A stretch of DNA of 64,000 nt from NCBI GenBank assembly GCA_030688025.1, contig JAUYJL010000009.1, positions 1,503 to 65,502 of the forward strand. The letters run 5' to 3'. This document shows, piece after piece, positions 23,363 through 61,432 of the stretch. A model generated the notes under the pieces. The model had not been told where the DNA came from and did no database searches. It saw only the letters and a program-made list of their open reading frames with translations. The translations under genes and the position numbers were made by a program. The stretch comes from Candidatus Peregrinibacteria bacterium (lineage in GTDB: Bacteria; Patescibacteriota; Gracilibacteria; UBA1369; LOWO2-01-FULL-3). Within the stretch, counting starts at the first letter, position 1; each line of letters begins with the position of its first letter.

Positions 23363-23977
23363 CTAATATTGCCTAATCATTCCGGTAACAACTCCTTGAA
23401 TAGTCAGAGACTCTTTTGGATAAATATCTTTATAATCCTTGTTTTCAGCTTTTAGATAATATTTTCCATTAGTCCTGACAAGTCTCTTCAAAGTATTCCC
23501 TTCGTCAATCAATGCAACAACGATATCTTCCGCCTTTGGCTCTTTTTTTGTATTAACCAAGACCAAATCTCCCTCAAAAATGCCTGCGTCTATCATGCTG
23601 ATACCTGTAACTTTCAAGAAAAAATAATCAGTATTGTTTTTTGCTAGCTCTTCTCCAACTTTCATCCATCCCTCAACATATTCGTCAGTAACTACAGGTC
23701 CACCAGCAGGAACAAATCCCAAAATCGGCAAACTGAAAGCCCCTTCATCAAGTTTTTCTTTCACGCTATTTAGAAGTCCGATTCCACGAGGCGTATCATC
23801 CTTTTGGATATACCCTTTTTCTTTAAGAGCAGTCAAATGCTTAAGGATACTATTGTCAGAGCTGACCCCGAAATGTTCTCTCATTTCTTTTAAAGTAGGG
23901 GATTTACCGTAAGCCAATTGATATTCTTCGATAAATTTTAGTACGGCCTCCTGTTTTTCTGTTAATACTTGATCCAT
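23363..23977 (-). CDS. lexA: LexA repressor (S24 peptidase)
   Basis: Winged HTH LTEKQEAVLKFIEEYQLAYGKSPTLKEMREHFG. Ala-Gly cleavage site in FVPAGGP. The catalytic Ser is in VTGISMIDAG and the catalytic Lys in GNTLKRLV. The start is set at MDQVL (23977) because the upstream ATG at 24010 would lie inside the promoter/operator. Confidence 0.92.
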   Translation of the reverse strand: MDQVLTEKQEAVLKFIEEYQLAYGKSPTLKEMREHFGVSSDNSILKHLTALKEKGYIQKDDTPRGIGLLNSVKEKLDEGAFSLPILGFVPAGGPVVTDEYVEGWMKVGEELAKNNTDYFFLKVTGISMIDAGIFEGDLVLVNTKKEPKAEDIVVALIDEGNTLKRLVRTNGKYYLKAENKDYKDIYPKESLTIQGVVTGMIRQY

Positions 23978-23993: not shown

Positions 23994-24039
23994 GGTGAGT
24001 ATACGCTCACAGTATAGGTGAGTGCTTACTCACCGTCAA
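23994..24039 (-). promoter_or_regulatory. lexA promoter with two palindromic operators (candidate LexA boxes)
   Basis: The minus strand reads TTGACG-GTGAGTAAGCACTCACC-TATACT-GTGAGCGTATACTCACC. The -35 and -10 hexamers are separated by exactly 17 nt, and that spacer is the palindrome GGTGAGT-N4-ACTCACC (24017-24034). A second palindrome, GGTGAG-N6-CTCAC (23994-24011), abuts the -10. Confidence 0.7.
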
Positions 24040-59770: not shown

Positions 59771-60121
59771 ATTATTTGTCTTATGATTTACTTACACCCG
59801 AGGCAGAAGTTTACTCATCAAGAGCACAAAAATCAAGAGCTTATGAAAGATTCGAATCAACAAACGCATATCCGCGGGCGGTCTTATGGTTTGATTTGAC
59901 AATTTTCCTCGGGGAAAAACATCTCACCGCACGTACCACGATCTTTTTTCAATAATTGTTAAACTCACTAAAACATTTCTGTACGTATTGGATGGGAAAA
60001 ATTCGACTTGACGGATTTTGGGTTGGAAAAATATTTCGCTTATTTTTCTTTCCTGTAAATTTTTTCAAAATTTCTGAAATTTCACATAACTTTTCCCGGA
60101 AAATATGCGGCAGACACACTG

Positions 60122-60139
60122 GGTGAGCGTACGCTCACC
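60122..60139. promoter_or_regulatory. Third copy of the lexA-type operator (perfect palindrome GGTGAGC-GTAC-GCTCACC)
   Basis: Perfect 18-bp palindrome matching GGTGAG-N6-CTCACC, 130 nt upstream of the HNH gene ATG at 60269. Confidence 0.6.
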
Positions 60140-60268
60140 GCCATATCGCCACACCATGATCGCTCCCCGCGAAAATGTGTTAAAATGGCTTATCCCTGCG
60201 GTTTTCTCGTTGATTTTTGCAATATTTTTTGGTATCTTTTTGTCAGATATTTAATAACTTTTAACATC

Positions 60269-61084
60269 ATGGACAAATCAGAATTACACAAAAAATTTGT
60301 AAAATTAGGACAAGAAAAATCCCACATTTCTCATCAATTATTGGCACTTTTGCCGGAAATTTTTGAAAAATCCGTTTTTCTTGATTATGGCTGTGGCTCG
60401 ATTTATGAATATGCGGCGCGTTTTGGAGACGGCTTGAGCGCGGGCGTTGTCGACAAAGTTTTAAAATTGAAAGAAAATTTGTCCGAATGTCCTTCTTTGT
60501 TCGAAACTGTGGCAACCCAAGGAGTGCATAAGGTAGCCATAATCGCGAGTTTGGCGAATAGCAAAACTGAAAAAGAGTTGGTTGAGGTGGTGAAAAATAT
60601 GAGCAAAGACGCGGTTCAAGAATATTCGAAAGTAAAACGCGGGAAAAAGGTGAGAATTATGACAAAAATTGAAATGGACGAAGAAATGGAGTTTTTGTTT
60701 TTGAAGCTAAAGAAAAAACTAAAAACCGTCTCCAACAAGGAAACGATGAAACGGCTTTTACAAGCCATGGATAGACAACTTTTCCCCGAGGAAAAAGTGA
60801 GTGGTGACGGCGGAGTTGTCAAAAAAATCACCAGATATATTCCGAAAGCCAAAAAACGTGAATTGTATCAGGAAACTTTGGGGCGATGTGCTTATGATGG
60901 CTGTAATAGGCCAATCGACACCTTGCACCATACTGATGGCTACAGCAAAACAAAAAATCACAACAATGTCGTCGGACTTTGCGAAATTCATCATCAGTTT
61001 GCTCATAACGGCATAGATAGGCCACTTGTGAAAATGGATTTGCTTTACAGAAGGTACAGGCAAAGGGCACTCGTGGCGGGGTAG
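60269..61084 (+). CDS. HNH endonuclease (DUF222-like architecture), putatively LexA-controlled
   Basis: C-terminal CAYDGCNRPIDTLHHTDGYSKTKNHNNVVGLCEIHHQFAH is an HNH motif. The start is set at MDKSELHKK; the listed ORF runs from 60185. Confidence 0.75.
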   Translation: MDKSELHKKFVKLGQEKSHISHQLLALLPEIFEKSVFLDYGCGSIYEYAARFGDGLSAGVVDKVLKLKENLSECPSLFETVATQGVHKVAIIASLANSKTEKELVEVVKNMSKDAVQEYSKVKRGKKVRIMTKIEMDEEMEFLFLKLKKKLKTVSNKETMKRLLQAMDRQLFPEEKVSGDGGVVKKITRYIPKAKKRELYQETLGRCAYDGCNRPIDTLHHTDGYSKTKNHNNVVGLCEIHHQFAHNGIDRPLVKMDLLYRRYRQRALVAG

Positions 61085-61271
61085 CTTGCGGTGGCGGGGG
61101 TAGTTGAGGCAAACGCGACCACAGGAAAATGACAAACTGTGCTCGCGATGATATAGTTTGTGGTGAAGAAGCTGAGAGACAATTAGCGGAGGAGCCAAGG
61201 TCGTCCTAAACCTTCCGCTAACCCCATCCTTTACTATGCAGGTTATTCCAGCCCATATTCAATTCCATCTT

Positions 61272-61432
61272 CCACGGATTACGCCTCATCCTCTCCACCC
61301 TTGCTCCACGGATTACGCCTCATCCACTCCACCCTTGCTCCACGGATTACGCCTCGTCCACTCCACCCTTGCTCCACGGATTACACCTCATCCACTCCAC
61401 CTTTACTCCAAGGATTACATCTTAGAATTCTC
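61272..61432. repeat. 34-bp tandem repeat (about 4.7 units) derived from the 3' end of yidD
   Basis: Units lie at 61272, 61306, 61340 and 61374, with a degenerate unit at 61408. The consensus is CCACGGATTACGCCTCATCCACTCCACCCTTGCT. The reverse complement encodes ...NPWSKGGVDE(A/V)*, the YidD C-terminus plus stop. Confidence 0.9.

Follow-up and report, generated by a model that had tools for sequence, protein, structure and literature searches.

We examined a 64,000-nt stretch of the genome of a Candidatus Peregrinibacteria bacterium (hereafter the window; coordinates are positions in it), in which a gene for a 271-aa predicted HNH nuclease is preceded by a perfect copy of the palindrome that stands in the lexA promoter. 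It is rather likely, in our judgment, that this palindrome is a functional LexA operator, that it is a built-in module of the ~330-bp leader of a mobile, multi-copy family of HNH genes, and that it represses the nuclease until DNA is damaged. On the evidence of sequence, a link between the nuclease and the SOS response is probable, and the HNH gene is apparently mobile and selfish. Judged by its distribution, the box is a built-in part of the leader that travels with the HNH gene and not an orphan site, because the segment that holds it is lineage-specific, the gene is present in multiple copies, and leader and box accompany the gene in unrelated contexts.

The window comes from a 1.18-Mb genome (G000; 37.8% GC, 98% complete), which was compared with a set of 41 related genomes (labeled G0xx). 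We take GGTGAG-N6-CTCACC to be the LexA box (SOS operator) of this clade because it occupies the lexA promoter, is rare genome-wide, is confined to SOS genes, and is set in promoters of the design TTGAC-box-TAnnnT. The lexA gene (23366-23977, minus strand) is matched by both Pfam LexA_DNA_bind and Peptidase_S24, and the second of the two boxes in its promoter fills the spacer between TTGAC and TATACT. The genome as a whole has seven perfect sites and one site with a single mismatch, compared to about 0.018 expected from base composition; the motif is therefore not scattered at random. Apart from the copy at the HNH gene, the sites are the two lexA boxes and those at recA, radA and three paralogous Bro-N genes. 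The first-pass annotation, which was made from the sequence alone, had taken the motif for a LexA operator, and this is supported by the location of the other copies in the genome, all at classical SOS genes. A scan of the window with GTGAG-N6-CTCAC gave only three matches, the two lexA boxes and the HNH-gene copy, which confirms the claim that the latter is the sole further occurrence in 64 kb. The host encodes an intact LexA, with DNA-binding and S24 domains, and a recA with its own box. As far as sequence comparison goes, no canonical SOS genes other than lexA, recA, radA and the three Bro-N genes can be detected with this motif.

The same motif was present in 37 of the 41 related genomes, while a control with the pattern reversed returned zero in nearly all 41. 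About 51 of the 68 distinct boxes in these genomes, among them those at recA and radA, exactly fill the space between the two hexamers of a TTGAC-box-TAnnnT promoter. Of the remainder, nine stand as a second box in tandem, like that at lexA, and three show the promoter design shifted by one base. Outside those classes, and apart from one copy of a repeat family in G040 (locus L017), only the HNH-linked boxes sit outside a promoter spacer. Canonical boxes of the clade lie 30-60 nt from the ATG. The CGTACG spacer of the HNH-gene box was also found in boxes at radA of G001 and G012, at recA of G012, and at another gene in G005 that appears RhuM-like by reading of its sequence.

Some further features of the operator and its regulon were noted. 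The three Bro-N genes lie outside the window (G000 C4:1804, C22:20878 and C15:166713); each encodes ~278 aa behind a canonical LexA-box promoter, their sequences read as DinD-like, and one of them is directly followed by a gene for a PIF1-like helicase. Genomes that lack perfect matches to the motif still carry lexA (L125 in G021, L126 in G020, L129 in G031 and L132 in G036). In the lexA promoters of these four the TTGAC-box-TAnnnT design is kept and the arms have drifted, as in ATGAG..CTCAT or in GGTGAT..ATCACC, the drifted operator of G020. Several contigs of G040 hold about 12 copies of GGTGAG-GTTTTA/CAAAAC-CTCACC, of which none is in a canonical promoter; they form a separate repeat family with the arms of the box and are a caution that matches to the motif need context before they are counted.

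The box upstream of the HNH gene, GGTGAGCGTACGCTCACC at 60122-60139, is a perfect 18-bp palindrome (18/18), and all 12 of its arm bases match the lexA operator. It starts 147 nt upstream of the ATG at 60269 and ends 129 nt before it, inside a GC-rich patch (56% GC at 60100-60180 versus 28-30% on either side). On each of these points, the perfect palindrome, its fit to the lexA-promoter motif and a GC-rich setting some 130 nt from the start codon, the first-pass annotation had described the site correctly.

The box is conserved with its gene. The five closest homologues (P0003, P0004, P0005, P0008 and P0009) are 68-75% identical in amino acid sequence and have unrelated neighbors, including genes for a sugar epimerase, a sigma factor and an ABC ATPase. 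All five keep a homologous ~330-bp leader with the box 145-154 nt upstream of the ATG, so that the motif recurs at the same offset in the closest homologues despite their differing genomic contexts. In the alignment of HNH-gene leaders, pairwise identity was 93% in the arms of the box but fell to 46-47% in the 40 bp on each side. Because of this difference, the alignment indicates that the arms are under purifying selection. The protein tree groups the six closest genes in one clade with support of 99/96, and the box is found in all of them. We also surveyed 35 family members gathered by protein similarity alone, scoring an upstream box at ≤2 mismatches; 10 of the 35 had one. Boxes were present even where the proteins are only 35-42% identical, in L090 (145 nt upstream), L092 (130 nt), L113 (146 nt) and L114 (184 nt), and further HNH-linked boxes were found in G006, G017, G018 (two copies) and G026. 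In one assembly, two near-identical leaders (L083:2847 and L084:2847) differ by an inversion of the inner 16 bp of the box, giving the spacer CGTATA in one and TATACG in the other with the outer bases unchanged.

The leader contains three promoter-like elements (Table 1), and their distances from the box were counted by hand from the leader sequences. In the distal element, CTTGAC is invariant in 10 of 10 leaders; by our reading of the alignment the AATATT that follows is a poor -10 and is not conserved. An AT-rich stretch separates this element from the GC-rich patch with the box. The middle element is an extended -10-like sequence that follows the box by 40-41, 46-47, 50 or 57 nt across the leaders, and other HNH subfamilies of this genome share the GGCTT-N5-TGC motif next to it. 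The -35 of the proximal element lies 70 nt downstream of the box, and in its -10 the TGCTA core and the TT columns are invariant in the other leaders. If transcription starts where these elements predict, the box would be centered at about +88 from the distal start, at about -62 from the middle start (~60193), and at about -114 from the proximal start.

Table 1. Positions of the HNH gene, its leader and the LexA boxes in the 64,000-nt window.
Feature	Position	Strand	Remarks
Reference LexA boxes	23994-24011, 24017-24034	.	lexA promoter; second box fills TTGAC/TATACT spacer
Lineage-specific segment (leader, HNH gene, GC-rich tail)	59848-61380	.	Between purH and yidD; absent from same-genus site
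Palindrome TTTCCTCGGGGAAA, HNH-element-specific repeat in leader	59904-59917	.	Homologous leaders have 1-3 copies beside TTGAC
Conserved 5' leader of HNH gene	59990-60268	+	Alignment of 10 leaders from differing genomic contexts
Distal promoter-like element	60008-60035	+	cTTGACg (60008-60013), then weak -10-like AATATT (60030-60035)
LexA box, perfect palindrome GGTGAG-CGTACG-CTCACC	60122-60139	.	HNH-leader type, without flanking -35/-10 hexamers
Putative extended -10-like element TGtTAAAAT	60178-60186	+	Starts 40-41 nt after box in five leaders
Leader motif GGCTTATCCCTGCGG (GGCTT-N5-TGC)	60187-60201	+	Nearly invariant, 76-89% pairwise identity
Putative proximal promoter-like element	60210-60238	+	TTGATT (60210-60215), 17 nt, TGgTATCTT (60230-60238)
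HNH gene, 271 aa	60269-61084	+	Helical N-terminal part, hypervariable linker, C-terminal zinc-finger HNH (beta-beta-alpha-metal) nuclease domain (predicted)
Palindrome TTTCCCCGAGGAAA, same as leader palindrome	60781-60794	.	Inside the open reading frame; encodes conserved FPEEK at edge of hypervariable linker

With these elements in place, the following course of events can be proposed. In the undamaged cell, LexA would occupy the box, presumably a high-affinity site given its perfect symmetry, and transcription of the nuclease would be lowered. DNA damage would bring about RecA-stimulated self-cleavage of LexA and so vacate the box, allowing the nuclease to be made alongside the products of recA, radA and the Bro-N genes. 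Two routes to repression can be envisaged: bound LexA could interfere with the upstream part of the RNA polymerase footprint at the middle (extended -10) promoter, or it could block transcripts arriving from the distal TTGAC element. We infer the binding of LexA, its repressive effect and the route of repression from the sequences alone; the simplest direction, by analogy with all other boxes of the clade, would be repression relieved by LexA cleavage.

Several observations weigh against repression from this site. Neither promoter hexamer is present in the flanks of the box (cactg on one side, gccata on the other), and the reverse orientation is no better. The geometry is thus atypical, as nearly all other boxes of the clade are promoter spacers, and our reading of the leader alignment found no conserved promoter overlapping the box. 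A center at about -62 from the middle promoter would be a classical activator position, and the geometry would also allow activation. Outside the closest clade the box is patchy on the protein tree, where at least six to eight gains or losses are needed to explain it, and at least 12 other HNH paralogues in the genome all lack it. The sister leaders of P0010, L105 and L107/L108 have no box but keep all other leader modules, which argues that the box is dispensable for expression. In this respect the box behaves as a regulatory add-on.

Several candidates for a different or additional function of this region were examined and, except for a second weak box, rejected. The box is not a decayed canonical SOS promoter in either orientation, since agreement of its flanks with TTGAC or TATAnT is limited to 0-3 positions and the leaders do not conserve these flanks. 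A leftward promoter that would run through the box on the minus strand (TTAACA-16-GATCAT) has no conserved counterpart in other leaders. The box was also rejected as a control site for the divergent purH, because conservation upstream of this gene in sister species ends after the first 77 bp, short of the box. There is no T-tract after the palindrome, and a terminator scan found no intrinsic terminator there. A structured RNA in the leader received no Rfam match at the gathering threshold, with only noise at E≤5 (E, expectation value), and RNAalifold returned just the palindrome of the box plus a 2-bp pair. Upstream small open reading frames (ORFs) vary in length and frame. If translation began at the in-frame ATG at position 60185, which lies 45 nt past the box, the ORF would have 299 aa, but the homologues do not conserve this extension, which in them is either out of frame or interrupted by a stop. 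The second weak box, GGGGAAAAACATCTCACC (59911-59928, two mismatches), lies 211 bp upstream of the main box and overlaps the leader palindrome; it was not conserved in the other leaders.

LexA might bind the box and still not be a simple repressor. It could activate from about -62, or it could serve as a host factor or damage sensor for the DNA transactions of the element, such as cleavage, recombination or copying. Consistent with this, the box never overlaps a conserved promoter, and its center at about -62 of the extended -10-like element (about -72 in L090) is an activator position of the class-I type. In Mycobacterium tuberculosis, LexA is reported to act as a positive regulator as well (PMC3381160). 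However, the spacings of 40-41, 46-47, 50 and 57 nt between box and promoter do not keep to a single helical phase, and all other boxes of the clade are placed as repressor sites. To our knowledge, no non-transcriptional role of LexA has been established for HNH elements, and we regard this explanation as possible but unlikely. It is rather doubtful that the box is a non-functional passenger, an SOS operator that the ancestral leader once picked up or gained by recombination and that its descendants merely inherit. Such a passenger would suit the lack of hexamers at the box, the patchy distribution on the tree, and the absence of the box from the sister leaders and from all other paralogues in the genome. 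It would not suit the 93% identity of the arms between flanks that fall to 46-47%, the perfect or one-mismatch boxes kept in leaders of proteins that are only 35-42% identical, or the HNH-gene copy, which is still an 18/18 palindrome.

A role unrelated to LexA, either as a DNA or RNA hairpin or as the target of some other protein (the N-terminal DNA-binding domain of the element itself, for instance), seems quite improbable. The arms are exactly those of the LexA box and show no compensatory stem variation, and there is neither a T-tract, an Rfam match nor a conserved wider fold, although the perfect palindrome does stand in a GC-rich patch, the element bears further palindromes of its own (TTTCCYCGRGGAAA), and two near-identical leaders carry the inner 16 bp in opposite orientations. 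A chance match has only the atypical position in its favor and can be given almost no credence, with about 0.018 perfect sites expected per genome and a match that recurs at the same offset in independent loci. A functional LexA operator that represses the nuclease remains the explanation that we prefer.

The segment that carries the gene lies between purH and yidD, and this gap was compared among genomes of the same genus. In G001, G003 and G004 it measures 560-700 bp and holds an unrelated ORF of 170-218 aa and no HNH gene; in G002 it holds a degraded HNH gene of another subfamily. Because only the first 77 bp upstream of purH align between same-genus genomes, 59848-61380 is wholly lineage-specific. 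The gap (59771-61380 in the window versus L065-L068) is thus a variable hot spot within the genus. At least 12 diverged HNH paralogues are present in the genome, many of them at contig ends. A query of the genome contigs with the single protein found no match; a query based on the alignment did. Presence or absence of the gene at purH-yidD, its multiple copies and the unrelated contexts of its homologues all argue for mobility. The first-pass annotation had offered a mobile or selfish element, a bacteriocin-like function or a repair factor as possible roles; the mobile or selfish element fits best with a multi-copy gene of variable presence, and nothing points to a bacteriocin or to a dedicated repair factor.

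The left border of the element could be bracketed to 59848-59990. A conserved 3' end was not found, and the 3' flanks of the homologues are not conserved. At the right border of the lineage-specific segment, positions 61271-61418 are a 34-bp tandem repeat (4.4 copies, 93% match) whose unit reproduces the last codons of yidD (NPWSKGGVDE-stop) and which looks like a repeated target or junction duplication. The palindrome shared by leader and coding region has a core, TCCYCGRGGA, that occurs 23 times in the genome versus 1.3 expected (in the window and on contigs C1, C11, C14, C32 and C33), mostly in or beside HNH paralogues. TTTCCYCGRGGAAA may be a recognition or recombination site of the nuclease. 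Another HNH subfamily carries a variant of the palindrome, ATCCTCGAGGAT, and in L086 the linker repeat was also found upstream and downstream of the ORF.

The first-pass annotation had predicted that the C-terminal domain is an HNH nuclease. Three observations support this prediction: residues that are invariant among homologues, a beta-beta-alpha unit modeled with high confidence, and weak profile matches to the IscB HNH domain and Ref. The residues C207-x4-C212, H220 H221, N, C238-x2-H241 H242 and H246 follow one another in this order and are invariant across 48-50 homologues, as is D257 (48 homologues). An alignment-based AlphaFold2 model (mean predicted local distance difference test score, pLDDT, of 93) shows a helical part at residues 3-171, a disordered linker at ~172-192 and a beta-beta-alpha unit at 218-246, with strands at 218-221 and 234-237 and a helix at 239-246. 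Pfam RecA_dep_nuc (PF16786) matched ~40 residues of the HNH core in 13 of 14 close members, below its cut-off in each (E of 2e-4, best 8.8e-5). A profile search of the PDB gave a weak match to the IscB HNH domain (E=1.5e-3) and a non-significant one to P1 Ref (E=0.97), and Pfam HNH (PF01844) matched 1 of 50 diverse relatives. Foldseek found no significant match in the PDB for the whole model and weak HNH and DUF3102 matches in BFVD. The N-terminal part had been thought to resemble DUF222, and this was not supported: the DUF222 profile (PF02720) matched neither the protein nor 14 close relatives at E≤1. A set of 50 diverse relatives gave no match at E≤0.01, and a six-frame search of the genome was likewise negative. 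The family is large, as its profile finds 7,413 clusters at 50% identity (E≤1e-3) in a library of 1.84 billion proteins.

Phage P1 Ref (Pfam RecA_dep_nuc, PF16786) is an HNH nuclease that cuts DNA within RecA filaments. Of all Pfam families, its own comes closest to the HNH core, with matches in 13 of 14 close homologues, and a functional link to RecA would suit a nuclease timed by the SOS response. The scores are nevertheless below the Pfam cut-off and cover only ~40 residues. Closer at hand are the canonical SOS promoters of the clade (lexA, recA, radA and Bro-N). They share the 18-bp operator with the HNH gene, in some cases down to the CGTACG spacer, but there the operator is the -35/-10 spacer and lies 30-60 nt from the ATG, whereas the HNH box has no hexamers and lies 129 nt from it.

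The closest parallel is to the REP13E12 (13E12 repeat) genes of M. tuberculosis, for which a link to LexA was reportedly noted by Davis and colleagues in 2002. Most of these DUF222/HNH genes are directly bound and controlled by LexA; they are multi-copy and insertion-element-like, and their boxes lie in repeated DNA (PMC3381160; Smollett et al. 2012). Both families thus consist of multi-copy, insertion-element-like genes with a helical N-terminal part and a C-terminal HNH, and each family has its SOS boxes in the repeated DNA alongside the gene; the genes join the core SOS genes in the LexA regulon (as predicted for the Peregrinibacteria). The differences are that the Peregrinibacteria belong to another phylum and have another LexA motif, that their protein has no DUF222 match, and that their box is ~145 nt upstream of the gene and outside any recognizable promoter. 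In addition, binding and induction are experimental results in M. tuberculosis, whereas for the Peregrinibacteria we infer them. By this analogy, the HNH family described here would resemble REP13E12 in the way it works, which is a separate matter from belonging to it.

Control of mobile-element enzymes by LexA is otherwise well known, as for the SOS-controlled integrases of integrons (Cambray et al. 2011, PMC3108266). The likeness is that a mobile element bears the LexA box and that an enzyme which cuts or recombines DNA is timed to damage of the host, as predicted for the HNH gene. In integrons, however, the box overlaps the intI promoter and the enzyme is a tyrosine recombinase, while here it is an HNH nuclease. 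The motif scan of the genome found no LexA box at the integron-like recombinase gene that is present in the same 64-kb window.

LexA-linked selfish HNH genes are already known as a kind, and the gene studied here would be another instance, with a fixed non-promoter operator in a leader that travels with the gene and with palindromes also in the coding region. In an uncultured, small-genome lineage of the candidate phyla radiation (CPR), a very small SOS regulon would thereby gain a mobile nuclease gene as an accessory member. Among the unexplained repeats of these genomes, the HNH family ranks with the most abundant, and Pfam does not capture it. The parallel with REP13E12 suggests a recurrent pattern in which selfish HNH genes link themselves to the damage signal of the host, in distant phyla and through unrelated operators. 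The fixed position of the operator outside any promoter offers a clean natural test of LexA acting at a distance, and the conserved leaders are ready probes for the LexA regulon of a group that has not yet been grown. We can also picture, as a speculative and not very probable extension, that the HNH genes of the Peregrinibacteria are self-contained selfish units (leader, LexA box, own palindromes and nuclease) which use the LexA of the host as a damage sensor to time their cutting and copying. The box would then act from its unusual upstream position, possibly by something other than simple occlusion and perhaps even positively at about -62, and TTTCCYCGRGGAAA would be the recognition or recombination site of the nuclease. 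If so, SOS induction would also drive diversification of the linker and the spread of the element.

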